Position numbers and translations under genes: made by a program. From an uncultured Thermodesulfobacteriota bacterium (lineage in GTDB: Bacteria; Desulfobacterota; DSWW01; CAZFWM01): a stretch of DNA of 55,560 nt. A model generated the notes under the pieces. The model made no database searches, was not told the DNA's origin, and was given only the letters and a program-made list of their open reading frames with translations. Shown piece by piece: positions 1 to 26,241 of this stretch; the stretch's first letter is position 1, and each line of letters starts with the position of its first letter. Location of the stretch: contig CAZFWM010000002.1 in assembly GCA_964522545.1 (NCBI GenBank), positions 22,289-77,848 of the forward strand, in the 5' to 3' direction.

Positions 1-312
1 GCGCCCGAGGAGAGCATCGAGGTCGAGAGTTCACCGGATGGGGCCGACCGGGTCGCCCCCGACGCGGCCGAGCCCGACGCGCCCGAGGAGAGCATCGAGG
101 TCGAGAGTTCACCGGATGGGGCCGACCGGGTCGCCCCCGACGCGGCCGAGACTGCGGCGGCCGAGGAGAGCATCGAGGTCGAGAGCTCACCGGATGGGGC
201 CGACCGGGTCGCCCCCGACGCGGCCGAGACTGCGGCGCCCGAGGAGAGCATCGAGGTCGAGAGTTCACCGGATGGGGCCGACCGGGTCGCCCCCGATGCG
301 AGCGAGCCCGGC
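1..312 (+). repeat. 78-bp (26-codon) tandem repeat, 4 copies visible
   Basis: Near-identical units start at 1, 79, 157 and 235 (gcg(c/g)ccgaggagagcatcgaggtcgagag...); the last unit diverges after about 297. Confidence 0.95.
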
Positions 313-600
313 ATCGCTTACGAAACGACTGAAGAAGATACCCTCTGGGATCAAGACGAACAGGAAGGAGACGGCCAAGGAGACCTGCCCGACACCCCGG
401 CAAGCCAAGCACCAGCGCAGCCGTCCCCCGGTTCTCCGGATGGTGAAAACCTCGCAGGAGAGACCGAAGAGAGCGGGGATGAAGAACCCGGCTCGGACAG
501 GAATGACACAAAAAGCAACAAATCATACGTTCCGGACGAGGACCTGGATTACGAAGTCCTGGAGATCACCTTGCCAGGAGACGAAAGTAACACTCCTTGA
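1..600 (+). CDS. 3' part of an acidic, repeat-containing protein (5' end outside window)
   Basis: Frame +1 is open from base 1 to TGA at 598-600 and reads APEESIEVESSPDGADRVAPDAAE... to ...DEDLDYEVLEITLPGDESNTP. Third codon positions are GC-rich like the neighbouring genes. The 38..613 ORF in the track is an Arg/Pro-rich shadow frame. Confidence 0.7.
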   Translation, partial: APEESIEVESSPDGADRVAPDAAEPDAPEESIEVESSPDGADRVAPDAAETAAAEESIEVESSPDGADRVAPDAAETAAPEESIEVESSPDGADRVAPDASEPGIAYETTEEDTLWDQDEQEGDGQGDLPDTPASQAPAQPSPGSPDGENLAGETEESGDEEPGSDRNDTKSNKSYVPDEDLDYEVLEITLPGDESNTP

Positions 601-644: not shown

Positions 645-1487
645 ATGAGTTTGGACATCGATTTTAAAATGGACGATCTCCCGTCAATGCCGCCTATCGC
701 GGCCAAGATCCTGGAGCTGCTATCCGACGAGGAGACTTCGGCCGGCCAGCTCAACCAGGTCATTACGCGGGACCCATCACTCACAACAAAGCTCTTGAAG
801 ATCTCCAACTCGGCCTTTTACGGCCACTCACGAGAGATCAAGACACTCACGGCGGCGATCATGGTCCTGGGCTTCCGCACGATCAAGGATCTGGTGCTGG
901 CCGTCTCACTGAGAGACTACACGAAGAGATTCGGGCTCACGGAAAAGATGCTCTGGGAGCACTCGGTGGGAACGGCCATTGCCGCCCACATGACGGCAAA
1001 GGAGCTTAAACTCGACGACTGGGAAGAGGCGTTCATTTCAGGGCTCCTGCACGACATCGGAAAACTGGCACTCAATATGCTCAAATCGAATGAGTTCACC
1101 ATGGTGATGCAGCTCGTGTACAACAAGGGCATCCCATTCATCGATGCCGAGCGAAAGGTGCTGGGTTACGACCACTCTCTGATAGGGGCCGAGCTGATCA
1201 GGCAGTGGAAGCTGCCGACAAAACAGGAATACGTGGCAGCGTACCATCACAACCTGGAGAGAGCGCACTCCCACGGGGGGAGTGACTCCGACCTGATCCT
1301 CCTGGTGAATTTCGCAGACCTTGTCAGCCACTACCTGGGATTCGGGCAGAGATCCCCCGAGAGCGAGGTCGACCTAATGGGCTCGGCCCTGGCCCGGAAG
1401 TACTCCCTGGAAGCAGAGCAGATCGACCGGTTCACGGATGAGATCCAGACTGCATTCCAACAGGAGCGTTCTATCTTCGGTGCTTGA
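645..1487 (+). CDS. HDOD domain protein
   Basis: LPSMP, DPSLTTKLLKISNSAFYG, LWEHS and GLLHDIGKL motifs; AGAGG RBS before ATG 645. Confidence 0.92.
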   Translation: MSLDIDFKMDDLPSMPPIAAKILELLSDEETSAGQLNQVITRDPSLTTKLLKISNSAFYGHSREIKTLTAAIMVLGFRTIKDLVLAVSLRDYTKRFGLTEKMLWEHSVGTAIAAHMTAKELKLDDWEEAFISGLLHDIGKLALNMLKSNEFTMVMQLVYNKGIPFIDAERKVLGYDHSLIGAELIRQWKLPTKQEYVAAYHHNLERAHSHGGSDSDLILLVNFADLVSHYLGFGQRSPESEVDLMGSALARKYSLEAEQIDRFTDEIQTAFQQERSIFGA

Positions 1488-1492
1488 CGGCC

Positions 1493-2281
1493 ATGAGAGA
1501 AAACCAGCGTGAGACATACTGGGTCCAGAATACCACAGGGGCCTGGATCCTCCCGGAAGAGGCGAGAAGTAGGCTCATCCTGGACTATGCGCCCCACATC
1601 CGTCAGATCATCTACCGGATCAGCCCGCGCCTACCCCCCTCGATCGATCTGGAGGATCTCGAGAATTCGGGAATCCTGGGCTTGATGGACGCCATCGAGA
1701 AGTTCGATCCCACCAAAGGGATCCTGTTCAAGACCTATGCAGAATACAGAGTACGGGGCGCCATACTCGACGAGCTCAGGGCCCTCGACTGGGTCTCGCG
1801 TTCGACGCGAAAGAAGATCAACCGGCTCAGTCAGGCCTATGCGGATATCGAGCAGGAACTAGGCAGGGCAGCCACCGAGGAAGAGGTGATGGGGGCCCTG
1901 GGGGTGGACGAAGAAGAATTTTATTCGATGCTCGCCCAGGTCAGCTCGGTGACTCTCATAAGCCTGGACGATCTCAAAGATCCTCTCATGCTGAAAAATC
2001 TGAGCCTTTATAGTGAATCCTCGACTCTGAGCGCTCGGGACATCATCGAGTCGATCGACTTCAACACACTCAGGGCCCTCGTTATCGAAGCCATCGAGGG
2101 ACTGCCCGAGCGGGAGAGGCTCGTTATCGTCCTCTATTATCAAGAGGACCTGAACATGAAGGAGATCGGTGAGGTGATGGATATCACCGAATCGAGGGTC
2201 TCTCAAATCCATACAAGCGCCATCCTTCGGCTCAGGGGCCGGACGAGGCGCCGCCTTATGGGCGAGGGGAGAGAGATATGA
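1493..2281 (+). CDS. fliA: RNA polymerase sigma-28 factor FliA/WhiG
   Basis: GILGLMDAIEKFDP, FKTYAEYRVRGAILDELRALDWV and EIGEVMDITESRVSQIH; flagellar context. Start could be TTG 1484. Confidence 0.95.
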   Translation: MRENQRETYWVQNTTGAWILPEEARSRLILDYAPHIRQIIYRISPRLPPSIDLEDLENSGILGLMDAIEKFDPTKGILFKTYAEYRVRGAILDELRALDWVSRSTRKKINRLSQAYADIEQELGRAATEEEVMGALGVDEEEFYSMLAQVSSVTLISLDDLKDPLMLKNLSLYSESSTLSARDIIESIDFNTLRALVIEAIEGLPERERLVIVLYYQEDLNMKEIGEVMDITESRVSQIHTSAILRLRGRTRRRLMGEGREI

Positions 2282-3438: not shown

Positions 3439-4629
3439 ATGGAAAGAATCTTATTTCTGATCGTCGACCCTGTTCCCGGCATGCGACGCGCCATACGGAG
3501 CATGCTCTGGAGCATTGGGTGTAAGAGGGTCCTTGATGCCCCTGACGGCCAGACAGCCTGGCGGCTCTTGAACAGGGAAGGAACTGTGGGCTTCATCGTC
3601 GCAGACTGGACGCCCCCCAGCAATATGGCCATAGAGCTGCTGGATCGGGTGCGAAAGGAGCCGATGTTCAGCTCCATCCCTTTCCTCCTCCTCGTGGGTG
3701 CCGTGAGCCCTACAATCGTGGCCAGGGCGGCCGAGACCGAGGTTGACGGCTGCATCATCAAGCCTTTTATATTAAAGACTCTCGAGGAGAAGATCACAAC
3801 CATACTCAACCGGAGAGAGAAACCCGGGCCGGCTGAAGACCACATTCGTCGCGGCGAGATCTTTATCGCCGGGCATCTCTATTCCGAGGCGCTCCATGAG
3901 TTCAAAACGGCGCTGGCTCTCTTCCCGAACAGCGCCCGGATCCGCACGCGCATCGGCCAGATCTATGAAAAGATCGGCTTCGATACGGAAGCGAGGCGGC
4001 AATATATAGAAGCGACGGAGAAGAATCCCAAGTATGTGAAGGCGCATCAGACCCTCGGCGATTTCTACGAAAAGCTTCACCGGCACGATGACGCCATCGT
4101 CGCGCTGGAGCGGGCGAGCCGGATCAGCCCGCAAAATCCGGATCGCCAGATGCAGCTTGGGAAGGCCTACCTCGAGATCGGACTGATCGAGGAAGCGGAG
4201 CAGCGATTTGAAAAGGCTGTCGAGCTTGACCCTGCCAATATGGATCGCAAGATAGACATTGCCGAAGCCTACTATGAAAAGGACTATACTTATCAGGCCA
4301 TCAATGCATTCAAGGCATCCCTCCAGACGGGCCGCGTGCCCGCCCACCTGTACAACCGGATCGGAATCGCCCTGCGCCGAGAAGGTAACTTGGAGGAGGC
4401 CATTCACTTTTACAACAATGCGATCCGGCTATCACCCGGGGACGAAGTGATTCACTATAATCTCGCCCGGGCCTACATGGAGAACGATGAGCGTAGTCTG
4501 GCCCTGAAATCGCTTCAAAAGGCACTGCATCTCCGCCCTGATTTCGATGAAGCCAAGGCAATGATGAGCCGCCTCACACAGGATGAGAGTGACCATGGAA
4601 AAGCAGAAAGCAGAAATCGACAAGACTGA
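3439..4629 (+). CDS. CheY-like receiver domain + TPR repeat protein
   Basis: Receiver motifs (LIVD, IVADW, IIKPF) followed by many TPR motifs (e.g. YNRIGIALRREG, HYNLARAY). Confidence 0.88.
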   Translation: MERILFLIVDPVPGMRRAIRSMLWSIGCKRVLDAPDGQTAWRLLNREGTVGFIVADWTPPSNMAIELLDRVRKEPMFSSIPFLLLVGAVSPTIVARAAETEVDGCIIKPFILKTLEEKITTILNRREKPGPAEDHIRRGEIFIAGHLYSEALHEFKTALALFPNSARIRTRIGQIYEKIGFDTEARRQYIEATEKNPKYVKAHQTLGDFYEKLHRHDDAIVALERASRISPQNPDRQMQLGKAYLEIGLIEEAEQRFEKAVELDPANMDRKIDIAEAYYEKDYTYQAINAFKASLQTGRVPAHLYNRIGIALRREGNLEEAIHFYNNAIRLSPGDEVIHYNLARAYMENDERSLALKSLQKALHLRPDFDEAKAMMSRLTQDESDHGKAESRNRQD

Positions 4630-5206
4630 GCTGCCGGATGACATCCACGCCGTGGAGGAAGACGCCGGCAAGGACGAAGCGCAATCGGCGGCGATGCACC
4701 CGCTTATACGCAGGGATCTCATCCTGATAGCATGCCTGGTCCTTTCAGGCATGGCGGGCGGAGTCGCCTTTGGGGTCCTGCACCCCAGGCTCTCGCCCCC
4801 CGTTGCTGCTCCATCCCCCGAATCCACAACGCCGGCGGTGGGCGAGGATGTCTTCTCGATGGAAGGGCCGGATCAAATCATGCCCTGCATCCTCGAGCCC
4901 TTCTTGCTCGCTTCCGAAGACGCTTTTTTCAGGGTACAATTTACCATGGAGCTGGAATCGGAGGTGGTCCTTTCAGAGGTCCGAGACAGGAAGACTGAGA
5001 TAAGAGCCGAGATCTACCGGCTTCTCAAGGATAGCGAGCCGATCGATGTGATCAGCCGCGATCGCTCGCTCAAGAGCAGGCTCCTGGATGCGGTGAACCA
5101 GAGCCTCAGGAGCGGCCAAGCTCTCAGAGTCGATTTCAACATCCTCCACGATCAGGAACAGGCGCCGCTAGATCCTCTTCTCACCCCTGGGGCCGTGGGC
5201 GAGTAG
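4595..5206 (+). CDS. fliL: Flagellar basal body-associated FliL family protein
   Basis: Single TM helix, then LEPFLL...FFRVQFTMEL...EIRAEIYRLL...LKSRLLDAVN, the FliL pattern. Confidence 0.75.
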   Translation: MEKQKAEIDKTELPDDIHAVEEDAGKDEAQSAAMHPLIRRDLILIACLVLSGMAGGVAFGVLHPRLSPPVAAPSPESTTPAVGEDVFSMEGPDQIMPCILEPFLLASEDAFFRVQFTMELESEVVLSEVRDRKTEIRAEIYRLLKDSEPIDVISRDRSLKSRLLDAVNQSLRSGQALRVDFNILHDQEQAPLDPLLTPGAVGE

Positions 5207-5347
5207 GAATTCGCGCATGGCCTCGAGAGCCAGCGTCCGTGAGGTGCGATCCTTGCTAAAGATCCGCCGTGCCTCTACCATGAAGGTTTCGTTCAACTCT
5301 TTGATGGTGAGGGAGATCGGCCTGCTCCCGTTGACGTAGATGATCAT
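5168..5347 (-). CDS. 59-aa hypothetical protein downstream of a sigma28-type promoter
   Basis: GGAGGTG RBS before ATG 5347; MIIYVNGSRPISLTIKELNETF...; overlaps the fliL 3' end convergently. Confidence 0.5.
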   Translation of the reverse strand: MIIYVNGSRPISLTIKELNETFMVEARRIFSKDRTSRTLALEAMREFLLAHGPRGEKRI

Positions 5348-5442
5348 GAATCCTTCACCTCCCAACGTATCGTAACCCCCTAAATAAATAGACACCCGAC
5401 CGGCTCTCCTCATTACAAAAGAGACTGTGGTCCCTACTCTAT

Positions 5443-5469
5443 TTATCGGAATTTCAGTGGGGATCTTGA
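5443..5469 (-). promoter_or_regulatory. Sigma28-type promoter
   Basis: Minus strand TCAA-N15-TCCGATAA versus consensus TAAA-N15-GCCGATAA. Confidence 0.6.
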
Positions 5470-5576
5470 GTCCGACTTGGTCCTTGCGGCTTTTATCCCT
5501 ATGTAGCTTTCCAAATAATAAGCGGGACGTGCGGGGATATCTCGAGATGAAGTTAATGAATTCAGGAAGAAAAGGG

Positions 5577-5596
5577 TGTTGAACTGTTAGTTGGGC
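5577..5596 (-). other. Truncated attC (R''-spacer-L'' half only)
   Basis: Minus strand GCCCAAC-TAACA-GTTCAACA; R'' is complementary to the cassette start GTTGGGC at 7459; no L'/R' follows. Confidence 0.6.
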
Positions 5597-5819
5597 TTTC
5601 CTGCCCTCGCGTCCTCAATGTCACTCGGGAGTCGTCTATGTCCTTCTCCTCGGGCCCGTTTCGCGCCTAGTTCAGGACAGACGCGGATTTTGGGCCAACA
5701 TGGCCCGATGGATGGCCCGATTACCGTTGTTACGCTATCCTGGTCCGAGAATCGGGCCGTTTCGGCCCGTTGAATGGCCCGATCTAAGAAAGGGCGTAGG
5801 CCAACCGATCCTTCCGTCG

Positions 5820-7304
5820 TCATGGGCGGATCACCTCATACCGAGTTGCCCTGCCGGCACCGGTCATCTTTAGCAATCCCAGTTTGGTCAGCTTCCGGAT
5901 ATGGTTCTTGGCTGTCCGATTGGGAAGCTTCATTGCCTTCTCGTATTCGGCGGTCGCCACCGAGTTGCGCTTCGAAATCCACTTCCAGCCGACGAGCTCG
6001 GATTTGTTGAGCTGTTCCCGGATTTCGCTGGGCAACGTGGAGACTGCCGATTCTCGGCTCCGGTAGATCGTAAGCACGAGGTAGTCGCCGGCCAGGGCGA
6101 AAGTCGGCAGGGGAAGGTTAAGCCTCTGCGCCTGGCCCTTCAGGCTCTTCTCCAAGCCGAATCCCTGCTCCTCGGCCATCCCCATGCGGGCGAACGTGTA
6201 ATGCAGAACAGGATTCCGGCTCTTCATCGGCGCCGTAAACGACTGGAGTTCTTCAAGAGTGACCGGTGGAATTGGCCCACCGGGACTCTTGACTGTAATA
6301 GTATCCGCGTTCACCACGAGCTGGCATTTCTGCCCGGCGAGGTCATAGTCGCGATGGATCAGTGCATTGACCACGGCCTCGCGGATCATGTCGAACGGCA
6401 AATCCACTTCCTCCTTCCGTTCCATGCGGCGCCGGTCGATGGTGCTTGGAAGCACAGTGTTCAGCCACTTTTCCAGGAGGTCTGGAATGAGCACCAGGGC
6501 CTGACCGAATTCCTTCCGCGACGACGATCCATCCGGCAAATCCGCCCGCGCCAGCAGCCCGGCCTGCGGCATGGCGTTGCGCGCCTGCTTGCCGAACAGG
6601 AGCAACCCAAAGCCGCTGGGCGTCGCCGCGTCGCCGTCGCCCACGAGCACTCCCTGCTGTCGGAGCATTCGCAAGAACTCATGCGAGCCCACCTCTGGAA
6701 TCAGTTTTGCTTTCGAACGATAGCGTTTCAGCGCTTGCCGGGAGAGATCCTCCAGAGCCACCGCCGTCATTGGGTCTTCGTACATCGAGAGCTTGATCGG
6801 CTCCTCTTTTGGCCTCGCCGGTTGCAGCCGCGTCCATGCGAAAAACTCCTGATTCTCTGCCAGAATCTCGTCCTGAAGGTCGCGGTCGAACATGTGGACT
6901 GTCACACCGTGGCGGCGGAGGTGCTCGATGCCCTTCCCCGCCACGCGCGGGTTGTCGTCCTCGAGACCCACATAGACCTCCTTGATGCGAGCGCTGACGA
7001 TGTGTCGCGCGCAGCCACGTTTGGGCTCGTTGCGGTCGAGACAGGGCTCGAGAGTTGTAAAGAGTGCGCAACCATCCAGCCGTTCTCCAGGGCACTTACG
7101 CTCAAGCAGAATGAACTCGGCATGATCGCCATCGCGCAGTTCCCCCCGCGCCGCCGTCACAACCGAACCGTCCGGCCGCACCAGCACGGCACCCACCGAC
7201 GGACTCGGCGACCCGTCAGGCCGGTGTTCAGGCACCGACTGGCGCATAACCTCAATCGCCTTCTTCATCATCGAGCGCGAATCGATCTTCCCTTTCGCTG
7301 GCAT
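5820..7304 (-). CDS. RibD-like Zn-dependent deaminase fused to HATPase_c_4 (RecG C-terminal-like) and winged HTH
   Basis: PSVGAVLV, DHAEF and TLEPCLDRNEPKRGC (deaminase); REAVVNALIHRDY, SPGG, RNPVL and EEQGFG (HATPase_c_4); RTAKNHIRKLTKLGLLKMTGAGRATRY (wHTH). No RibD reductase domain. Confidence 0.85.
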   Translation of the reverse strand: MPAKGKIDSRSMMKKAIEVMRQSVPEHRPDGSPSPSVGAVLVRPDGSVVTAARGELRDGDHAEFILLERKCPGERLDGCALFTTLEPCLDRNEPKRGCARHIVSARIKEVYVGLEDDNPRVAGKGIEHLRRHGVTVHMFDRDLQDEILAENQEFFAWTRLQPARPKEEPIKLSMYEDPMTAVALEDLSRQALKRYRSKAKLIPEVGSHEFLRMLRQQGVLVGDGDAATPSGFGLLLFGKQARNAMPQAGLLARADLPDGSSSRKEFGQALVLIPDLLEKWLNTVLPSTIDRRRMERKEEVDLPFDMIREAVVNALIHRDYDLAGQKCQLVVNADTITVKSPGGPIPPVTLEELQSFTAPMKSRNPVLHYTFARMGMAEEQGFGLEKSLKGQAQRLNLPLPTFALAGDYLVLTIYRSRESAVSTLPSEIREQLNKSELVGWKWISKRNSVATAEYEKAMKLPNRTAKNHIRKLTKLGLLKMTGAGRATRYEVIRP

Positions 7305-7452
7305 GATCAGGTCTCCCCGGCGATTACCGTACTCCGATCGTCATCATCATTACCATCATCATTGTCGTCACCGCTACTATGGTCGTTGCTATCACCGTCA
7401 CCTAGCCCTCCCCCGCCGCGTAATCGCACCATTCTTTGCAGCATCACTTCCA

Positions 7453-7508
7453 GCCCAACGACTCGCGTCACCGGCGCGCGAATAGCGCGTACAGTGCACG
7501 CGTTATGC
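7453..7508 (-). other. attC site with shortened R''-L'' spacer
   Basis: Minus strand GCATAAC-G-CGTGCACT...GGTGACG-CGAGTC-GTTGGGC; L''/L' pair with an extrahelical G; spacer is 1 nt instead of the usual 5. Confidence 0.75.
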
Positions 7509-7548
7509 GATACTTATGCATGTCCAATCGCTAACTGTTTACTTCCGA

Positions 7549-10500
7549 CTACTTCAGCGGGCCGATCTTATCTGCCTCGATCGGCAATGCTGTCAAGTAC
7601 ATCATTGGTACGTGCGTGTTGGTTACAAGCCTATCATCAATGCGGGCCGGATCCGGCACGAATCTGACAATACGTTGGAGACCCGTGGGGTTGGCCCTTA
7701 TCCAGTTAATTCGCCGGACATGCTTATCTAACTCATCCTTCGCCTCTCCTCGGAAGCGGCGGCAGATTTCGGCGACCTCGGCAACTGTCCGGGCAAGTTG
7801 CAAGCGCTTGCACTCGATGAGCTGAATTTCTCCACTAGTCTTCCACGCCAAGACATCGATATCACCGAGCTCGGCGGAACCACCCAGTTCAGTCATCTTT
7901 ACTTCATTACGCGCCTCCCATCCTTTCTCGCGCAGTTGATTAGCAACTGACCGAGCAAAGGCATAACCCCTCTCGCTGTTTACCGTTCCGATGTATTGTC
8001 TAATCTTCTGCGAAGTGAAGAACTCTTGTGGTAAATGCCCTTGTTCAGACCTCTCCAGCAGGTACCTGACTCCAAGCCTGAGTGCACCGGCCCCATAGAA
8101 TACCTTGTCATCGTCTTCCTTACCGAAGACAAGAATAGGTCTGGCTGTTGCGGAGAGCCTACGACGGAATCGCCAGGGATAAAGGTCTCTATTCCTGAAC
8201 CCCGGTGGCGGCCTCTCCCAGGCAGTACGATGGAAAATGCTAAAAGTTCGAATAAACGCTTCGCTGACATCAAGCGACAGGCTACGGGCTGTAGTCAGCA
8301 TCGTTTTGAGATCGCCTAGCGTTGTCTGCACAACAACGCTGTCGCATTCAACCGCTAAATCCAATAGCTCCGCCAACCCTTCAATCGCCTCGTCCGGCGT
8401 TAAACCAAACTCATTCTGAAATGCCCGAATGAAATCGGCAGAGAATGACTCGTCAGCTCGCGCTCGTTCACTGGGACGCTTGCTTTGATACAATTTGCTA
8501 TAGTCTCCTGCCGCAGCTTCGAATTTTTCGCGGAAGTAGCCAGTTAAGAACGGCTTGATGACGGTATCATAGAAACCACGCTTGATGGTGTACTCGCCAT
8601 TCGGATGTAGGTCGATTCGGGGTTCAATCAGATCGCTGTTGACCGCGTCAGAGTCCATTGCAACCTCGACTAGCAGTGCTGCTTTGGCCAGCAGTTCATC
8701 CAGTCCCCACCGAGAAAGCTGGCGGCCACCTGCCTCTGGACACTCACAGATGGCCATTTCTAGGATTGTGCGAGTGGGTAAAGAAACATTGTCCCGATCG
8801 GATTCCCGCTGCTGCGCGACCGTGAGGACGTCCTCCTCCGGCGCATACAAGGCAAGCACTGCCTGTGCGGTTCTGCGCCAGTGGTCACGGTCTTGGATAA
8901 CGGCTTCATGTACACCAAGGGCCTCACGGATCACCGACGCCCTATCGAGTTGCTGCAACAGTTCCCGGAGCTGGTTCCAGACCTTGTCTACAACCTTGTG
9001 CAGGAATTCATTGCACTCGGACTTTGACGCGCTACTGGTACCAAGCCGCGCTGCCGTACAACCTTCGGACAGCCTGAGCTTGGAGAAGACAAAATCCTCA
9101 TGAGCCAGAAAGATCGGCTTCTGACCTTGCCGCGCCAGCAAGTGCTCAATGGGGTAATACGTACGAAAGCGATGAATAACACGCATACCCGAGACACCGA
9201 TCACCCTGCTCATTAGGTCATCGAGGGCGATCTCGTCAACATCCCCCGTCACACCTTGATGCAGGCTAACAAGGCCTTTCGCAATGCCGTGCAGAACCAA
9301 CCTCTCACCTGTATTCTGAGGCTGCTGGAAATGCATGAGGAAATCAGATGGAAACTTGACCTCAGCGGTTCGCTGGTCGAGGTTGACAGCAACTTCTGGC
9401 TCGCCGATCGGAACGTCCGGCTGGGGTTCTACGTAGTCCACAGATACAACGACTTCGCCAAAGTTGAGGCGAATCTCTATTGCGCCGGCTGGCGCCTTTG
9501 GGTAAAGAGCTTCGACCTCGAACACTAGCCTGTCGTACAAGCCAATGAACCCAGACCACATCTCGTAGAGGAGGCGCCGGCTCTGCTCGTCACCCTCCCG
9601 TGGCTCTACCAGGAGCCAGCTTGGGCCGCGAGGTGTCTCCACCGCGCCTGCCAGCACGCCCGCCCGCAAATGACCCAGGCTTGCGTATATCGGGCGACCT
9701 TGCATGGACTTGAAGTACGCGTCCCTGCCGAACCGCATGACAGGTGAATATGAACCGGCTGTTGTCTGAAGGACATGGCGGTCCACCAGGTTTCTCACCT
9801 CCTCCCGGACAGGCAGGACCATGTCGTTACCAATGGAAAGCATAGAGCCTTGATCAACGGGCAGGTCACGCGGCACTAGCTGGTAGTGCAGGCGACGCCA
9901 GAAGCAATAGAAGTTGTAGTCACCATTAATATTCTGGAAGTAGACGCCCTCCCCCGTTGCCCATTCCTTCTGCTTGATGCATTTGAGGTAGCGTGTGATT
10001 GGTCGGTGGAACTCACCAGCTAACATGAGGAGGTCCGATATTCGAATAACCGACAAGCGCCACTGATCCGGCCAATCCTTGAAGCCCAGAGCAAACCCGC
10101 GGCCGAGGCCGCCCATCACCAGCAGCGTCATTCCTTCGGCGAAGTCTGGTAACGACCGACAGTGACTGGATGCTTTGCTCAGATATTCCTCGAGTCCTGC
10201 CCTTAGTTCCTCCGGGTACTCCATAAAACTGGAAAGGCCCTGGGCATCCAGCCAATCCATCCTGTCATGCAGTAGGACAACATGGAGATACTTGTTGATA
10301 TCGTACTTGAGCAACCAAGCGTGCAGTGAAGGCACTTTTCCGTCCGGTACTGGCGGCTCAAGAGAGTCGGTCTCCCCTTTCAACTCCCAGAGCCCTTCTC
10401 TCTCAACTTGGCGCGCCTGGCGGTTGGCGAGCGCGTCTGCGAACGTCTGAAGGTAGCCCATCCGCCCTAATTCAAATAGAACAAAGCGCCTGATTGCAGG

Positions 10501-11232
10501 ACTGACTGCGTGAGGCAAAGCAAGGACCAGTTCACCACCGAAGTCGACGAGAGGGCGTCTCTCCAGGGACGAGTGTCCGGTCGACTCCTCCGCGAGTGCT
10601 TGCTTGTCTTCATCCCGCAGGATAAACGGCTCCAATACCTGACGATTGATACCCAGCGCATCAAGTTCGCTGACTGTGAAGGTTATCGCGCGGGCCCGGT
10701 CTGCCACCTGGGTTGCCGGTGCCAATCTAATCGTACTTTTTGGGGTCGAAGACTCGATGTGCCATCTCCGCAGGTCGACCCGTTCGGCAACGCAGTCGCT
10801 TAGTTTCAGCAATGCAAATGCGGGAACCAACTGATCCCGCCATTTCTGTGGAGCCCTGCGGCTGCCCAGGGTTTCGAGGACTACCTGAACGAAGTAATCA
10901 TTTGATTCCCAGATACCTTCGAATACCCGCCGATTTCCTTCGGGAGTCTCTACATTGGTGACGTGGACGTCTTCGACAGGATCCTCGAGCAATGCAATCT
11001 GGGTTTTGCCGAGCTGCCTGTTCAGCCAGTGACCAATTTCAGTTAAGCCAGGCTTACGACGTCCGTGGCAGTGTGCCACGGCCAGGTGAACGAGGGTCTC
11101 TATACGGATTGTATTGGCCTGTAGGGCAGACGCTGTCAGTAGGCCTCCGAGTTGCGATACAGTAGACTTTAGATGGTACTTTCCAAGGAATCCTGCAATG
11201 CGTTTCAGCTCAAGAGCATTGAGTGGAACCAT
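7549..11232 (-). CDS. 1227-aa protein with C-terminal PD-(D/E)xK (NERD-like) nuclease domain
   Basis: Long uninterrupted ORF; C-terminal GDIDVLAW...IQLIECKRL motif; the N-terminal ~1080 aa are not recognisable by eye. Confidence 0.8.
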   Translation of the reverse strand: MVPLNALELKRIAGFLGKYHLKSTVSQLGGLLTASALQANTIRIETLVHLAVAHCHGRRKPGLTEIGHWLNRQLGKTQIALLEDPVEDVHVTNVETPEGNRRVFEGIWESNDYFVQVVLETLGSRRAPQKWRDQLVPAFALLKLSDCVAERVDLRRWHIESSTPKSTIRLAPATQVADRARAITFTVSELDALGINRQVLEPFILRDEDKQALAEESTGHSSLERRPLVDFGGELVLALPHAVSPAIRRFVLFELGRMGYLQTFADALANRQARQVEREGLWELKGETDSLEPPVPDGKVPSLHAWLLKYDINKYLHVVLLHDRMDWLDAQGLSSFMEYPEELRAGLEEYLSKASSHCRSLPDFAEGMTLLVMGGLGRGFALGFKDWPDQWRLSVIRISDLLMLAGEFHRPITRYLKCIKQKEWATGEGVYFQNINGDYNFYCFWRRLHYQLVPRDLPVDQGSMLSIGNDMVLPVREEVRNLVDRHVLQTTAGSYSPVMRFGRDAYFKSMQGRPIYASLGHLRAGVLAGAVETPRGPSWLLVEPREGDEQSRRLLYEMWSGFIGLYDRLVFEVEALYPKAPAGAIEIRLNFGEVVVSVDYVEPQPDVPIGEPEVAVNLDQRTAEVKFPSDFLMHFQQPQNTGERLVLHGIAKGLVSLHQGVTGDVDEIALDDLMSRVIGVSGMRVIHRFRTYYPIEHLLARQGQKPIFLAHEDFVFSKLRLSEGCTAARLGTSSASKSECNEFLHKVVDKVWNQLRELLQQLDRASVIREALGVHEAVIQDRDHWRRTAQAVLALYAPEEDVLTVAQQRESDRDNVSLPTRTILEMAICECPEAGGRQLSRWGLDELLAKAALLVEVAMDSDAVNSDLIEPRIDLHPNGEYTIKRGFYDTVIKPFLTGYFREKFEAAAGDYSKLYQSKRPSERARADESFSADFIRAFQNEFGLTPDEAIEGLAELLDLAVECDSVVVQTTLGDLKTMLTTARSLSLDVSEAFIRTFSIFHRTAWERPPPGFRNRDLYPWRFRRRLSATARPILVFGKEDDDKVFYGAGALRLGVRYLLERSEQGHLPQEFFTSQKIRQYIGTVNSERGYAFARSVANQLREKGWEARNEVKMTELGGSAELGDIDVLAWKTSGEIQLIECKRLQLARTVAEVAEICRRFRGEAKDELDKHVRRINWIRANPTGLQRIVRFVPDPARIDDRLVTNTHVPMMYLTALPIEADKIGPLK

Positions 11233-11331
11233 CCCCGCACCTAACGATGTCTTATGGTGACCTGGAGAGCGCTTGGGCGACCTCCTCTGACCAAAAGGAG
11301 GTATTCAAGTAATCGCCGCGTTACTCGAACC

Positions 11332-11394
11332 GCATAACGTCCTGGGCGATCAGCAGCGACGCGAAGCGTCGTCGACTGCATCGCCGGGTTGGGC
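11332..11394 (-). other. attC site
   Basis: Minus strand GCCCAAC-CCGGC-GATGCAGT-(gacgc ttc gcgtc stem)-GCTGATC-gcccaggac-GTTATGC. Confidence 0.85.
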
Positions 11395-12174
11395 AGCACG
11401 CCCGTCAGTCTCAAGAGACGGTACCGATCGAGGGTTGTCAGATCCGTACCGGTAACACAAGTGCTGCATAGTAAAGCCCTCAAGTTCCGCGAACTGATAA
11501 GGATTTGTATGAATACCCCCCGGGATCTCAAGCCACTTCCGAACTGTCTGGATGAATACTGACAGGCTCTTCGCCTTTGGGCTACCGCTCTCTTCGATTG
11601 GATAGTGGCCGTACGGACGACGCCCCTTCTCCGGCAGGAATTCGAACGCTCCTTGGGCCAGGGAGACAACTAGAAGTGGATACTCGAGCTGTTCATCACG
11701 AAGGCCCACGTCGCGATACCAACGGCCGAGGAGCCCTGGCGTCAGCTTTGGCGAGTCGAACGCAAATAAAAACGTTGCAACGTAACTGTTGCGCGCCGTA
11801 GCTGCCTTCTTGAACGATTGCAGGTTCGTCAGCCCTTCCCTGAACGCTCGCTTGTCAAGAATGGTCTTGACCTCAATGACGCGCTTCAGCGCCTCTGGCT
11901 GGACGACGACCAGGTCTCCCAACCGAAAGAGGTAAGGCGCTGGATAGTGTTCATCGACAAAGAGTATGTCGCCTTGCTTCGACACGAACCCATCGGGGCA
12001 GTATGCGAATCCCGTACGAAGTGAGTGCCTCCCGGACAGCATCGGGCGGAGAGACTCCCTCAGTATCTGCTCATGATGCTCGCCAATTGACGGGTTGTGA
12101 TGTGTGAACTCGCGCAACCTCTCAAGCTGGGAGAGCATCTCCCTCGCCATTCCCTCGTAGAGCTTTGCGTTCAC
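11350..12174 (-). CDS. DUF6602 / NucC-like restriction-endonuclease-fold protein
   Basis: HNPSIGEHHEQILRESL...TGF...SKQGDILFVD...VIEVKT pattern; stop lies inside the attC. Start taken as GTG 12174 (AGGTGA RBS); the track gives GTG 12213. Confidence 0.75.
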   Translation of the reverse strand: MNAKLYEGMAREMLSQLERLREFTHHNPSIGEHHEQILRESLRPMLSGRHSLRTGFAYCPDGFVSKQGDILFVDEHYPAPYLFRLGDLVVVQPEALKRVIEVKTILDKRAFREGLTNLQSFKKAATARNSYVATFLFAFDSPKLTPGLLGRWYRDVGLRDEQLEYPLLVVSLAQGAFEFLPEKGRRPYGHYPIEESGSPKAKSLSVFIQTVRKWLEIPGGIHTNPYQFAELEGFTMQHLCYRYGSDNPRSVPSLETDGRAAQPGDAVDDASRRC

Positions 12175-12577
12175 GCTTTCACCTGTCTGCCCTAGTCCAT
12201 ATCGAGTTTCCACGTATGAGCCTTTTATCTTCCTTCCAGCTATATATAGCTCCAGAGCCGTTTAGTCAACTAATCAAAATTACAATATATTCCAGAGAAT
12301 TGAACCCACACTTCGGGGTTATAGGTAGTTTCTACTTAACTCCAATGGGTGATATAAATCAAATTTTATCCACCGGGCTGCGTACACCTTTGCCTCCCCT
12401 GTTTAGCACGTGAATGAAAATTATCATTCTCTGCGCCTCTGCGCGAGGTCCAGATCTTTCGTTCAATCTCTCTCATTTCGACCGCTTCCTACTGAGATTT
12501 CAACCGGAAGGAGAAATCGTACATGAATCAGAATCAGACGACCGCCGGCGGCGAGCCGGTGGTCGTCTGATTCTGAT

Positions 12578-12594
12578 TGGGCAATTTCTGCCCA
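12578..12594. promoter_or_regulatory. Candidate sigma54-activator binding site (copy 1)
   Basis: Palindrome TGGGCA-atttc-TGCCCA starting 147 bp upstream of the -24 GG. Confidence 0.5.
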
Positions 12595-12722
12595 GGATCC
12601 GGCAAAGGGCCGAACGGATATTTCCCTTACAGTTAAAACCGGCCCGGGAGGTGACTTTTAAAATAGTCTTGAATTACAGTTGGTTGCATCTGTTTTGCCC
12701 ACCCTTCTGACTCCCTGCAAGC

Positions 12723-12739
12723 TTGGCATACTGATTGCT
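12723..12739 (+). promoter_or_regulatory. Sigma54 promoter (duplicated flgF promoter)
   Basis: TTGGCATACTGATTGCT, GG-N10-GC. Confidence 0.8.
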
Positions 12740-12821
12740 CAGGACTCTCTGTGGATTTCAGATTAAAGATGACCTAAAGACCGGGGGTCTCCCCCCTCTC
12801 CTCTTCCGGAGGGATAGCTGA

Positions 12822-14018
12822 ATGGACAACGGAATCTATGCCGCACTCACCGGATACCTGGCCCAAGCAAGGCGCCTCGACCTGATGTCGAACAACCTTG
12901 CGAACGCCAATACGGCCGGCTTCAAAGATGAAAAATTATTTTTTAATGGTATTGTGATGTTGGGTATTGATAAATTAAGAACTCAAGATCAGAATCCGAA
13001 TAAATCTAAATGTCTAGAAAAAGGATTTGATATATTTAATAAATCAATCCAAGACACGCCACATTATAAGTTGGTGAAGGAATTTTGTGAAAGTCCTGAT
13101 TTTAATATTGAAGATAGTGAATATTGCAAGCTTGTTGATTTTGTATTATCTATAAGTAAGAAGCCATATATACATAATGAGCGTGAAATAATAGAATCTG
13201 GGTTAAAAAGAGCAAAAGATTATCTTGACTTATATAAGCGGATGAAGTTAGACAAGAAAGTTGAGCCGATAAAAGTAAAAGCACTGTTTAATGGAGATTA
13301 CATAATTACAGATGGTTTGCATAGGGTTGCTATAGCATTGGTTATGGGGCATGAGACTGTACCTGTAGAGATAATTGAAGTTGATGATCAGATAAATGCA
13401 ATGCTAGAAAGGCTTATGACAGAATATCCTGTTGGAAGAAGATTATATATCCCAATAGAGCATCCAATATTTAGCAATTGGAAACTTCTGAGAGATGATA
13501 CAAGATGGAAATTGATGTCTAGTGCATTTGATTGGAAGGGTAAAAAAGTATTGGATATTGGTTGTTATACAGGATATTTTTCGCATAAAATTGCAAAAAA
13601 AGGGGGAATTGTTATCGGAGTAGAGACAGATGTAACTAAATTAAGGGTAGCTAAAGAAGAAAATAGTCTGTTAAAATTAGATGTAGAGTTTATTCTTGGA
13701 AGTTTTGATACGTATATCAAAGGAAAACAATTTGACTGTGTCATATTCTTCAGTGTATTGCACTGGATACTTAAGGATAAAGGGATTGAAGGAGTTAAAG
13801 AATCTTTAACATTAATATCAGTTTCCTCACCAGTCATGTTTTTTGATATGGGCCAAAATAATGAGGAAAAGATGAGAACTGAAGAATGGAACCATGGAAT
13901 GACAATTGACAAAGATACAATACCTGGATTAATTATAGGAAATTCAGGCTATACAGATTTCAAACATTTAGGCACAAGCGACTCAGGAAGAGATGTTTTT
14001 AAATTTTGGAGAAGATGA
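12822..14018 (+). CDS. Chimera: FlgF N-terminus (35 aa) + ParB/Srx-like domain + class I SAM methyltransferase
   Basis: MDNGIY...[13 protein letters not shown], then an abrupt switch to AT-rich DNA; PIKV...YIITDGLHR (ParB/Srx) and KVLDIGCYTGYFS (SAM motif I). Confidence 0.8.
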   Translation: MDNGIYAALTGYLAQARRLDLMSNNLANANTAGFKDEKLFFNGIVMLGIDKLRTQDQNPNKSKCLEKGFDIFNKSIQDTPHYKLVKEFCESPDFNIEDSEYCKLVDFVLSISKKPYIHNEREIIESGLKRAKDYLDLYKRMKLDKKVEPIKVKALFNGDYIITDGLHRVAIALVMGHETVPVEIIEVDDQINAMLERLMTEYPVGRRLYIPIEHPIFSNWKLLRDDTRWKLMSSAFDWKGKKVLDIGCYTGYFSHKIAKKGGIVIGVETDVTKLRVAKEENSLLKLDVEFILGSFDTYIKGKQFDCVIFFSVLHWILKDKGIEGVKESLTLISVSSPVMFFDMGQNNEEKMRTEEWNHGMTIDKDTIPGLIIGNSGYTDFKHLGTSDSGRDVFKFWRR

Positions 14019-14501
14019 ATAAATAGGTGGTTAGTAAATGGGTCATGTAATTGATGAAAGATTAAACAAGCACGTCAGGCCTACAGCCGATTTGTTCAAA
14101 CCGTCCTTGACCGAACAGAACCCCTGGCCAAAGCCTTATAGATAGGGTACTCTTGATCCAGGACACTCAAATTGCCAAAATAGCGGACAGAATTTCTGAG
14201 ACGCGATACTAGACTGCTCATGAGCCAAAATTCTCCAATGGCTGAATCCAAAACAATCCACCGGAATTTCTTGGACGTTTTGTTCCTGCTCTCCATCTCG
14301 GGCATATAGTACTTAATACGGCGGAGCAGCAACCGGACAATTTTCCCTCATTCTCTGAGCCTCTGCTCGAGGTCCAGATCTTCCGTTCAATCTCTCTCAT
14401 TTCGACCGCTTCCTACTGAGATTTCAACCGGAAGGAGAAATCGTACATGAATCAGAATCAGACGACCGCCGGCGGCGAGCCGGTGGTCGTCTGATTCTGA
14501 T

Positions 14502-14518
14502 TGGGCAATTTCTGCCCA
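14502..14518. promoter_or_regulatory. Candidate sigma54-activator binding site (copy 2)
   Basis: TGGGCAATTTCTGCCCA, identical to copy 1. Confidence 0.5.
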
Positions 14519-14646
14519 GGATCCGGCAAAGGGCCGAACGGATATTTCCCTTACAGTTAAAACCGGCCCGGGAGGTGACTTTTAAAATAGTCTTGAATTC
14601 CAGCAAGTTACATCTGTTTTGCCCGCCTCTCTAACTCCCTGCAAGC

Positions 14647-14663
14647 TTGGCATACCGATTGCT
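14647..14663 (+). promoter_or_regulatory. Sigma54 promoter of the flgF operon
   Basis: TTGGCATACCGATTGCT, GG-N10-GC. Confidence 0.85.
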
Positions 14664-14745: not shown

Positions 14746-15528
14746 ATGGACAACGGAATCTATGCTGCACTCACCGGATGCCTGGCCCAGGTAAGGCGCC
14801 TCGACCTGATGTCGAACAACCTTGCAAACGCCAACACGGCCGGCTTTAAAGTAGACACGCCGGTGTTCGAGCAGTTCAATACACCGAAACCGGCCACGGT
14901 TCAAGGTCCCTTCGTGGCCGAATCCATGAATGAGGCCTATGTCATGGGAGCAACGCCACGCCAGAACCAGTACGCCGCCTGCGCGGGGACGATCACCGAT
15001 CACTCCCCCGGCCCTTTGAATGAGACCGGAGGGAGCCTCGATATGGCAATCAAGGGGAAGGGATTTTTCGCGATCGAGACCCCGGGGGGGGAGCGTTACA
15101 CACGCAATGGATGCTTCAGCCGCAGCTCGGAAGGGGATCTCGTCACGGCCGAGGGCCACGCCGTCCTGAACACCAACGGGGAGCGCATCAACCTGTCTGA
15201 ATCCGGAGAGGTGATTGTTCAGAAAGACGGGCTGATCCTTCAGGACGACAATCCTGTCGGCTCCCTCCGGATCGTGGACTTCCCCGACAAGTTGGTCTTG
15301 GAGAAAGAGGGGGACAATTGCTTCAAATACAACGGGAATACCCCCCCCGCCGGTCCCGATGAGATCCACGTGCTCCAGGGCTGCTATGAGCGCTCCAATG
15401 TCAACGTGGTTAAAGGGATCGTGACCATGATCGAGGTGACCCGCCAGTTCGGGGCATACCAGAAGGTCATCTCCTTTCTGAAGAACGCCGAGTCCCGCTG
15501 TATCAATGAAGTAGGAAAGCTCGCATGA
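14746..15528 (+). CDS. flgF: Flagellar basal-body rod protein FlgF
   Basis: [32 protein letters not shown] and ERSNVN; precedes flgG. Confidence 0.93.
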
Positions 15529-25164: not shown

Positions 25165-26241
25165 ATGCGTATTGGAGCCAACAGTTTTGTTTCGCCCCAA
25201 GCTATCGTAGAACAACCCGATCACATTTTTATTGGCAGCAATGTTCAAATCAAAGAGGGCGTTGTGCTGCGCCCGGAAAATGGATGGATATCCATTGGGA
25301 ACAACGTGGTCATAAACCACTATACCGCTATCCATGCAAAAGGGGGCGTGGAGATTGGAGATTGGAGCATCCTTGCTCCGAATTGCGGCATTTACGCGCA
25401 AAATCATTCTTTCAGCTCCTTCGACATGCCGATAACGAAGCAGCCCAATACAGGCGTCGGGATTACCTTGATGGGAGACAACTTGTTGGGCGGTGGCGCC
25501 ATCATTCTGGATGGAGTGACCCTGGGCAAAGGTACGGTAGTAGGGGCGGGATCTGTAGTCACCAAATCATTTTCAATGGCCAAAATCATTGCGGGAAATC
25601 CCGCCAGGATACTAAAAGACCGGGCCCCGACGGATGTCTGGGAATTTAAAAAAGCCGAGCGGTGTTCTTTGTATTTAACGCCTGAAAAATACTGGCCCTT
25701 CATAAACAAGCGAGCAGAGATTGCTCTGAAATATATAGAGCCGGAAGACACTGTCTTGGACATCGGCTGTGGTGAAGGCTACATCACAAATCAGGCCAAG
25801 GATCACTGCAAGAAGATCGTTGGAATCGATTACTCAGATGACGCACTGAAGACGGCCAGAGAAAGATATGATCTTGAATGCTATCACATGAGTAGTACGA
25901 ATCTGGTCTTTGAACAGGGGTCATTCGACAAGGTACTCTGTTTTGAACTGATTGAGCACCTTACACGAATTCAAGCGATTAAAATGTTGGCAGAGGTCCA
26001 AAAGGTCCTAAAACCCGGAGGGATTATAATCGGGTCAACTCCAATAAGGCAGACACCGTTCTCGGCACCCGCTACCTATTCTCACATCCATGAATACTCT
26101 GAACCTGAACTGCGAAAGCTGTTTGAGAATTTCTTGGAGCTAGGAATGTCCGGAGGTTTCTTTATTGCCAGAAATGGCGTGAAGGCCAGCATGAAAGGGG
26201 TCCCACGGTATGAGACCAGAGGATCGATTCTATCTTATTAA
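25165..26241 (+). CDS. Hexapeptide (LbH) acyltransferase fused to class I SAM methyltransferase
   Basis: IGSNVQI, IGNNVVI, VVGAGSVVTK and AGNPAR, then VLDIGCGEG and FELIEHL; lower GC than the flagellar genes. Confidence 0.85.
   Translation: MRIGANSFVSPQAIVEQPDHIFIGSNVQIKEGVVLRPENGWISIGNNVVINHYTAIHAKGGVEIGDWSILAPNCGIYAQNHSFSSFDMPITKQPNTGVGITLMGDNLLGGGAIILDGVTLGKGTVVGAGSVVTKSFSMAKIIAGNPARILKDRAPTDVWEFKKAERCSLYLTPEKYWPFINKRAEIALKYIEPEDTVLDIGCGEGYITNQAKDHCKKIVGIDYSDDALKTARERYDLECYHMSSTNLVFEQGSFDKVLCFELIEHLTRIQAIKMLAEVQKVLKPGGIIIGSTPIRQTPFSAPATYSHIHEYSEPELRKLFENFLELGMSGGFFIARNGVKASMKGVPRYETRGSILSY

Follow-up and report, generated by a model that had tools for sequence, protein, structure and literature searches.

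We have analyzed a gene lying at positions 5820..7304 (minus strand) of a 55,560-nucleotide stretch of DNA, the window, from an uncultured Thermodesulfobacteriota bacterium. Its product joins an N-terminal zinc deaminase domain related to RibD to a GHKL-type ATP-binding module (PF13749, HATPase_c_4) and a C-terminal winged helix-turn-helix (wHTH). The family to which it belongs is large, strongly conserved and without a name. The PF13749-wHTH part is a known immune scaffold; what is new is the deaminase as its probable effector. Nucleotide-pool deaminases and Schlafen-GHKL nucleases have both become known in bacterial immunity only recently, and the family unites the two. The genomic context lends strong support to a function in defense. 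With moderate confidence we consider that the protein is probably a self-contained, single-gene anti-phage effector, in which ATP would gate the deamination of a free ribonucleotide-like substrate; our confidence is lower for the substrate. It is from observed features (the architecture, the conserved residues, the defense context and the equivalence with Schlafen proteins) that we infer an activity, a substrate, a trigger and a phenotype.

Architecture, conservation and distribution of the family

The open reading frame (ORF) is intact, beginning with ATG and containing no internal stop codons on translation. Its parts are as follows.

5820..7304, minus strand: the whole gene, encoding the deaminase-GHKL-wHTH protein P0001 of 494 aa, with the stop codon at 5820-5822
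6810..7304, minus strand: RibD-like zinc deaminase domain of the cytidine deaminase (CDA) fold, residues 1-165, from PF00383 and from PDB sequence and structure matches
7116..7124, minus strand: H61-A62-E63, zinc ligand and catalytic glutamate, in 33/33 aligned sequences
7011..7046, minus strand: P87-C88...C98 zinc-binding loop, PCx9C, with the invariant R91, P94 and K95 (alignment A1)
6405..6809, minus strand: linker and middle domain, residues 166-300, common to DIP2311 and Schlafen-GHKL proteins (3lmm match and BLASTP)
6051..6404, minus strand: PF13749/HATPase_c_4 GHKL-type ATP-binding module, residues 301-418 (Pfam and invariant boxes)
5823..6038, minus strand: C-terminal wHTH, residues 423-494 (ArsR/MarR-type structure matches)

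In Pfam, dCMP_cyt_deam_1 (PF00383) matches residues 11-113 with E 6.1e-13 and 49 bits against a cut-off of 25, and HATPase_c_4 matches residues 324-413 with E 4.6e-14 and 52.6 bits against a cut-off of 26. Further matches of the deaminase domain are to Inv-AAD (6.3e-8) and MafB19-deam (5.7e-6). The HTH matches are weak (HTH_20 on residues 456-480, E 0.01 and under its cut-off; also DIP2311-like_C). An AlphaFold2 (AF2) model of the 494-residue protein has a mean predicted local distance difference test score (pLDDT) of 80 and resolves three parts, with low pLDDT in the presumed ATP lid at residues 355-383. Residues 423-494 of the model superpose on wHTH domains of the ArsR/MarR type with Z 9.0-9.7, the best match being of ArsR type (Z 9.7, root-mean-square deviation (rmsd) 3.0 over 72 residues). 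A homodimer prediction, using two full-length copies and alignment A1, gave a score of 0.00, which counts neither way.

A preliminary description of this DNA, made from the sequence by eye, had proposed this order of RibD-like deaminase, HATPase_c_4 and wHTH, and the Pfam matches, the translation and the AF2 structure matches all confirm it. The motif REAxxNAxxHRDY that it recognized is present at residues 308-320 as REAVVNALIHRDY, i.e., R308-E309-A-V-V-N313-A-L-I-H317-R318-D-Y320. Its zinc motif requires amendment: the HAE triad lies at residues 61-63 as described, but the loop had been given as PCx8C, and there are nine residues between C88 and C98.

Conservation was examined in alignment A1, comprising 33 family members that are 52-91% identical to the window protein (mean column identity 68%). 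H61, A62, E63, C88 and C98 are invariant in all 33 sequences, as are R53, E55, R57, G59, R91, P94, K95, D116, P119, K124 and G125 of the deaminase domain. The alignment indicates that the catalytic residues of the deaminase are kept under selection. In a sister clade of about 52-55% identity the zinc loop is PCx11C in place of the PCx9C of the window protein. The GHKL boxes are also invariant in the 33 sequences (R308, E309 and N313; S340-P341-G342; N364 and G375; E378, E379, G381 and G383). They include the N-box Glu and Asn (E309 and N313) and the glycine-rich lid boxes (S340-P341-G342, G375, G381 and G383) by which a GHKL module is recognized.

A word-indexed database search gave 1927 matches at E<=1e-3 among 8000 scored candidates. 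The best 120 of the 1927, the query itself being one row, are 466-548 aa in length and 67-92% identical to the query. PF13749 and PF00383 were both found in 119 of these 120, so the fusion of deaminase and scaffold is more than chance. The only names carried by the best 120 are 'ATP-binding protein', 'ATP-dependent DNA helicase RecG' and 'hypothetical', and in the ESM Atlas there are several clusters with the same two domains, named automatically 'ATP-binding', 'RibD family' and 'hypothetical'.

Scanning species-representative genomes gave 56 loci spread over many phyla. These include Planctomycetota (Blastopirellula marina DSM 3645, Kuenenia), Cyanobacteria (Synechococcus), Acidobacteriota, Verrucomicrobiota, Spirochaetota, Ignavibacteria, Gammaproteobacteria, Actinomycetes and others, and among the matches listed the closest relatives of the window gene lie in other phyla. 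Thirty-six of the 56 copies are intact single ORFs, nine carry disrupting stops, frameshifts or deletions, the sites differing between copies, five are internal remnants and six are cut by contig ends. Such sporadic decay would be in keeping with a costly accessory gene, where the pattern is frequent. We found no full-length family member in 72,556 plasmids, 50,697 phage records or IMG/VR, which contained relatives of the scaffold only; a single plasmid match to the deaminase part was rejected, being an annotated ribD.

Split-looking copies at two loci (L014 and L015), together with a paralogue in the genome of the window, raised the suspicion of a programmed frameshift or readthrough at the junction of deaminase and scaffold. 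This was rejected, because the breaks in the nine disrupted copies differ in position and 36 copies are intact single ORFs. The paralogue is a second, diverged deaminase-PF13749 gene on contig C457 (locus L003, plus strand), where it occupies two overlapping frames at 1372-2004 and 1916-2938 that encode a deaminase of 210 aa and a scaffold of 340 aa. Possible explanations are a frameshifted pseudogene, a split gene and an error of the metagenome-assembled genome. It is flanked by an aminoglycoside-nucleotidyltransferase-like gene and an ADP-ribosylglycohydrolase gene.

The preliminary description had allowed that the protein might match a system already described. A targeted full-text search of the literature did not find the deaminase-GHKL-wHTH architecture described, and 'HATPase_c_4' occurred together with 'deaminase' in no paper. 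The word 'deaminase' is absent from the main texts of two papers on prokaryotic Schlafen proteins (PMC13056530 and preprint 10.64898/2026.05.29.728809).

A RibD-like deaminase on a scaffold shared with Schlafen proteins

The nearest sequence and fold to the deaminase domain are those of RibD/RibG (TIGR00326; PDB 2b3z and 2hxv). The best PDB sequence matches are RibD deaminase domains, with 9.9e-16 for 2hxv compared with 4.4e-5 for TadA. Residues 5-161 of the AF2 model superpose best on RibG 2b3z (Z 20.3, rmsd 2.1 Å over 143 residues), followed by Rib2 (Z 16.3), TadA (15.5), yeast cytosine deaminase (15.3) and dCMP deaminase (14.9). The HAE and PC...C zinc site and the ribose-contact motif D-x-N-P-x-V-x-G-x-G are common to RibD/RibG and the window protein. 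However, the zinc loop has eight intervening residues in RibD/RibG and nine or eleven in the deaminase family, which has in addition an invariant R-G-E-L-R-x-G-x-HAE signature of its own.

The protein resembles RibD without being one. The NCBIfam RibD model TIGR00326 scores 68 bits against a curated cut-off of 156.35, and its match covers only model positions 16-138 of 343, in agreement with the absence of a reductase domain noted in the preliminary description. No RibD reductase domain was found by Pfam or structure search, residues 166-494 being accounted for by the middle domain, PF13749 and the wHTH. Thus, unlike the bifunctional RibD, the window protein has no reductase domain, and it lies outside riboflavin operons. 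Neither does it belong to other named deaminase families: the TadA model NF008113 gives 21.1 bits against a cut-off of 150, and the anti-phage dCTP deaminase model NF041025 gives 12.3 bits against 400, on residues 73-111 only, to which the match of the PADLOC dCTPase model is also confined.

The genome has its own ribD. In the assembly (8.0 Mb in 669 contigs) this gene is split across two contig ends, with the reductase part on contig C140 (202 bits) and the deaminase part on C152 (153 bits). In a sample of the phylum, only 2 of 300 other genomes have a match to the window protein at E<=1e-30, one of them full length with 40% identity. Since there is a separate ribD on other contigs, the gene is rare in the phylum and its closest relatives are found in other phyla, we conclude that the window gene is not the housekeeping ribD. 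The preliminary description had argued against riboflavin synthesis, and this is upheld both by the separate ribD and by the neighbors of the gene (see below), a known defense nuclease and a DUF6602/NucC-like nuclease. Riboflavin operons were not encountered among the relatives either: a tblastn search at E<=1e-4 with the reductase part of the genome's RibD matched none of the 56 loci, the other rib genes not being searched by name.

What might the deaminase act upon? In Bacillus subtilis RibG, Lys79 holds the substrate phosphate, while Asp101 and Asn103 hold the ribose 2'- and 3'-OH, as described in PMC8256712. On HMMER alignment to RibG, Asp101 corresponds to the invariant D116 and Asn103 to N118 (D in the sister clade), and Lys79 falls within two residues of the invariant K95, which lies with R91 in the same phosphate-binding loop. 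This correspondence favors a free nucleotide-like substrate bearing a ribose 5'-phosphate over a base within a polymer. The substrate of RibD derives from GTP and loses its guanine-type 2-amino group, and for this reason a guanine nucleotide is a candidate substrate, by analogy and as speculation.

Deaminases of the same fold are found in bacterial defense. The anti-phage dCTP deaminase (preprint 10.1101/2021.04.26.441389) and AvcD (PMC10511110) are described as CDA-fold zinc deaminases in defense islands, and the logic proposed for them, alteration of the nucleotide pool upon infection, may be the same for the window protein. The nearest deaminase clade of the latter is RibD and not dCMP deaminase, and it lacks NF041025 membership. 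The regulatory parts also differ. The dCTP deaminase has a kinase-like regulatory domain and AvcD an RNA antitoxin, unlike the GHKL ATPase and wHTH of the window protein.

We turn to the scaffold. Residues 169-418 of the AF2 model match DIP2311 (3lmm) with Z 16.3, and the DIP2311-like scaffold carries in Pfam the name of a transcriptional regulator. BLASTP pairs residues 178-492 with residues 129-453 of a SLFN_AlbA_2-HATPase_c_4-HTH_24 protein that is encoded in the same genome (25% identity, E 6e-15). The Schlafen domain of that protein occupies residues 3-107. As the alignment begins just behind it, the deaminase fills the effector slot; and since the alignment extends to the C-terminus, PF13749 is followed by the HTH in both proteins. 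Pfam gave no match to PF04326 (SLFN_AlbA_2) in the window protein.

The equivalence with Schlafen-GHKL(-HTH) proteins, called 'Schlatpase' in preprint 10.64898/2026.05.29.728809 and 'pSlfn-HisKinase-HTH' in PMC13056530, therefore holds for the middle domain, for PF13749 with the E/N ATP box of the GHKL module, and for the wHTH at the C-terminus. It extends to genomic niche. Type I restriction-modification (R-M) operons house both the Schlafen-GHKL and the deaminase versions, and three SLFN_AlbA_2-HATPase_c_4 proteins of this genome are encoded within such operons (contig C14, locus L007; contig C56, loci L008 and L009). Of the three genes, one immediately precedes hsdR, another stands between hsdM and hsdS, and the third lies upstream of hsdM. 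The N-terminal effector of the window protein, by contrast, is a zinc deaminase and not a Schlafen/AlbA_2 nuclease. By analogy the protein would work like the Schlafen-GHKL-HTH proteins, without being a member, as it has no Schlafen domain.

The preliminary description had regarded the deaminase as swapped into the effector slot. The slot is confirmed by the alignment above, but the fusion is not a recent or one-off swap. When residues 161-494 alone were compared with 1.84 billion cluster representatives (clusters at 50% identity), there were 5396 matches at E<=1e-3, 845 at E<=1e-10 and 114 at E<=1e-30. Of the best 150, those 76 representatives with a length of 330 aa or more were then examined with Pfam; they extend down to 27% identity. 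A deaminase domain is present in 62 of the 76, together with PF13749 in 59 and without it in three; a further 12 have PF13749 only (330-481 aa), one has it with a Rce1-like domain and one with a TatD fragment. AlbA_2 was found by Pfam in none of these 76 nearest scaffold relatives. With 62 of 76 bearing a deaminase and none AlbA_2, the comparison indicates an old, large clade. In PADLOC the protein is matched best by a SIR2-bearing Argonaute-associated model, on residues 134-386, from which it follows that the same scaffold region stands behind other effectors too.

The Schlafen literature bears on the function of the scaffold. According to preprint 10.64898/2026.05.29.728809, 60,692 of the 103,533 Schlafen proteins of prokaryotes carry PF13749, in most cases along with an HTH at the C-terminus. 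The same preprint reports that in a Schlafen-Argonaute the module is a true GHKL ATPase, the gamma-phosphate and Mg being held by E314 and N318; binding of ATP there leads to tetramerization and an active nuclease. PMC13056530 gives Schlafen-HisKinase (34.0%) and Schlafen-HisKinase-HTH (19.2%) as the commonest prokaryotic architectures, and describes Schlafen as a tRNA nuclease that is read as the effector, with the fused domains as sensors. The E-x3-N spacing of the Schlafen-Argonaute is identical to that of E309 and N313 in the window protein. Because of this spacing and the invariant glycine boxes, an ATP-gated oligomerization switch would, by analogy, control the deaminase.

Genomic context, proposed mechanism and alternatives

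For the 56 loci, neighboring ORFs were called and clustered, and the cluster representatives named by Pfam, the remainder being named by BLAST against the representatives. Twenty of the loci have hsdM/hsdS upstream and/or hsdR downstream, always on the same strand and with the deaminase gene often immediately ahead of hsdR. Six further loci have an MTase-S fusion and/or ResIII-type R-M genes. Other cargo occupies the same slot at R-M loci: Abi_C, AAA_13 (PrrC-like), SIR2_2, Fic, RhuM and DUF4268. Over 10 loci (45 pairs), the mean mutual identity is 65% for HsdR and 66% for the deaminase proteins, and the two identities vary together with r 0.66. By these identities the association is old and stable, and is with one type I lineage.

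PrrC and RloC are anticodon nucleases whose genes lie within type I R-M operons, that of PrrC in EcoprrI. The deaminase gene is placed as they are, between hsdS and hsdR, and AAA_13 (PrrC-like) genes occur in the same cargo slot at four loci (L025, L026, L042 and L053). Position and shared slot suggest, by analogy, a back-up effector coupled to the R-M complex. Effector chemistry and regulatory domain differ from those of PrrC/RloC, and the window copy is without R-M beside it.

The preliminary description had called for a test of defense enrichment in the neighborhood. Relatives lie in R-M operons and defense islands, and in a PADLOC scan of 133 of the 360 neighbor ORFs within 6 kb (loci L033 to L053) there were 32 matches at E<=1e-12, with at least one in 18 of 21 loci, compared with 2 of 36 non-island ORFs of the window, which served as control, both generic methyltransferases. 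The types include type I and III R-M, SIR2-HerA, HEC-01, PD-T4-6 and the candidates PDC-M66, M68, S05 and S06.

Several arrangements at individual loci may be recorded. A RadC-like JAB gene (PF04002 with UPF0758_N) lies downstream on the same strand in nine sister-clade loci (L038, L039, L040, L041, L045, L046, L051, L061 and L065); it is absent from the window, and is a possible partner gene in the sister clade. At L025, L032, L060 and L068, RhuM-family genes (PF13310) stand between short HsdR-like fragments and a full hsdR, as if inserted into the 5' end of hsdR. A SIR2-HerA pair is directly upstream on the same strand at L047 (4814-7947), and HerA alone at L049 (172-2016, on a short contig).

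In the window, three minus-strand genes interrupt the plus-strand flagellar genes, and the deaminase gene comes last among the three. The other genes of this island and its flanks are listed below.

7549..11232, minus strand: Upx, known single-gene defense nuclease, 1227 aa (PADLOC PDLC02221, E 3.3e-167)
11350..12213, minus strand: DUF6602 / PD-(D/E)xK NucC-like nuclease, 287 aa (PF20247, 2.5e-17)
1484-2281, plus strand: fliA, flank of the island
4583-5206, plus strand: FliL-like gene, flank of the island
from 14746, plus strand: flgF/G/A/H/I, other flank of the island

Upx has been described as a single-gene defense nuclease (PMC13099982, PMC13601566). The product of the gene at 7549..11232 belongs with it, its residues 16-1214 matching model positions 44-1251 of 1271 in a full-length match. 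In PADLOC the DUF6602 gene matches PD_DExK (1.3e-19) and NucC (3.3e-11). The preliminary description had placed the deaminase gene in a mobile cassette. This is partly borne out, by an opposite-strand insert of three genes in a flagellar cluster; no integrase or transposase was seen in the three-gene island. When the island was compared across 20 relatives, in a set without close kin of this genome, the FliL-like flank protein found a weak match in two. Promoter and terminator signals within 5100-12800 were no higher than in shuffled sequences.

Two candidate partners of the deaminase gene were rejected. A 78-aa ORF at 5587-5823, overlapping the stop codon by four bases, is probably not a gene, because it has no Pfam or PADLOC match and no counterpart in the 56 loci. 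Upx is not a conserved partner; as no relative of it occurs among the clustered neighbors of the 56 loci, the deaminase gene and Upx share an island and do not form one system.

In the mechanism that we propose, the deaminase would be kept inactive in the resting state. On infection, binding of ATP by the GHKL module would lead to oligomerization. The trigger might be that the partner type I R-M system, where there is one, fails or is inhibited, or alternatively a cue sensed by the wHTH. The active deaminase oligomers would then attack a free nucleotide-like substrate with a ribose 5'-phosphate, corrupting or depleting the nucleotide pool, so that phage replication would be halted, possibly at the cost of the cell. 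A more far-reaching version is tentative, and we should judge it rather doubtful as a whole: that RibD-derived, GHKL-ATPase-gated nucleotide deaminases form a new class of immune effector, acting perhaps on guanine 2-amino groups (GTP/GMP to xanthine nucleotides), which serves as the retaliation module of one type I R-M lineage, fires when phage anti-restriction disables the R-M complex, and also works solo in defense islands.

If the protein is active, it would bring a new effector chemistry to the PF13749 scaffold and a tractable case of a GHKL ATP switch gating an enzyme, and might reveal a nucleotide deamination so far unseen in defense. On the more far-reaching version, the protein would be to deaminases what the Schlafen-GHKL proteins are to tRNases, and PF13749-wHTH would then be a general, exchangeable immune switch. 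The fixed position between hsdS and hsdR in one R-M lineage leads to a testable model, in which second-line defenses guard restriction systems. The family is also large and present in many phyla, and the only names it bears in databases are 'ATP-binding protein', 'RecG helicase' and 'RibD family'.

A number of observations weigh against the proposal. The substrate-contacting residues were mapped by aligning loop sequences, and near K79/K95 the mapping is imprecise. PADLOC contains no model that spans the protein as a whole. In PMC13056530 the fusions reported to protect Escherichia coli are those with DUF262 and Ig-like domains and not the HisKinase type, which on the texts of these sources limits the direct defense phenotype of the scaffold to Argonaute fusions. 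No R-M system adjoins the window copy, and no HsdR protein of this genome exceeds 40% identity to the R-M lineage with which the family is associated. As the gene co-diverges with a single HsdR lineage, the 20 R-M loci are not independent events, and hitch-hiking in a cargo hotspot could account for the association. The PADLOC comparison covers 133 of 360 neighbor ORFs and has a single window as its control.

Could the enzyme instead edit nucleic acids? The wHTH and middle domain might deliver it to phage DNA, RNA or tRNA, where C-to-U or A-to-I conversion in the manner of APOBEC, TadA or DddA would mutate or inactivate the polymer; it would still be a defense effector. The DNA-binding wHTH, the good structural match to TadA (Z 15.5), the Pfam matches to Inv-AAD and MafB19-deam, and the occupation of the effector slot elsewhere by a Schlafen tRNA nuclease (PMC13056530) all speak for this. 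Yet RibD/RibG is clearly the better match in both sequence (9.9e-16 against 4.4e-5) and structure (Z 20.3 against 15.5), and the NCBIfam TadA model reaches 21 bits with a cut-off of 150. Moreover, a free 3'-OH does not occur within a polymer, and the residues with which RibG holds the free 2'- and 3'-hydroxyls are retained (D116 and N/D118). We therefore regard editing as unlikely. Less likely still is a ligand-responsive transcription factor or accessory regulator of R-M, in which the deaminase-like and GHKL domains would sense or process a metabolite and the wHTH would tune the adjacent operon from operator DNA, with no direct antiviral role as an effector. The ArsR/MarR-type wHTH, the Pfam name of the DIP2311-like scaffold and the stable place within one R-M operon lineage fit such a role. 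However, a pure sensor needs neither an invariant HAE with both cysteines in 33 sequences nor the ATP boxes of a GHKL module, and the gene also occurs without R-M, here beside Upx and elsewhere with SIR2-HerA, HEC-01, PD-T4-6 and HipA-like candidates. The Schlafen versions of the scaffold are, in addition, described as effector-sensor fusions (PMC13056530).

Most improbable is a metabolic function, as a stand-alone deaminase of the pyrimidine or riboflavin pathway, or a salvage enzyme, fused incidentally to a regulatory module. RibD is the best named family match, at 68 bits, and relatives are sometimes named 'RibD family protein' in databases. But that score is far under the RibD cut-off and a reductase domain is lacking; the genome has a separate ribD; the tblastn search with its reductase part (E<=1e-4) matched none of the 56 loci; the gene is rare and patchy, with 2 of 300 genomes in the phylum sample; and its neighbors are R-M and defense genes.

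Other features of the window

Beyond the three-gene island, a stretch of at least 300 bases is duplicated at 12424-12723 and 14348-14647, with 96% identity and a separation of 1924 bases. The bracketed segment has a low GC content (32%) and encodes a SAM methyltransferase, in an ORF at 12822-14018 (plus strand). The first approximately 40 residues of this ORF duplicate the N-terminus of FlgF (Flg_bb_rod), the real flgF starting at 14746. The arrangement reflects either an insertion by which the 5' end of flgF was duplicated or an assembly artefact.

Farther along, a single ORF of 1886 aa at 26377-32037 (plus strand) unites methyltransferase and B12-binding radical-SAM domains with three GT2 glycosyltransferase domains and TPR repeats. 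The low-GC stretch in which it lies follows flgK, a flagellin-like gene and fliW, and the ORF adjoins a hexapeptide-methyltransferase gene at 25165-26241 (plus strand); this may be a flagellin-glycosylation locus. At the other end, the window opens (1-600, plus strand) within an open-ended ORF of tandem acidic repeats, in units of about 25 aa (PEESIEVESSPDGADRVAPDAAE...), which is located upstream of fliA and of a putative HDOD-like ORF.

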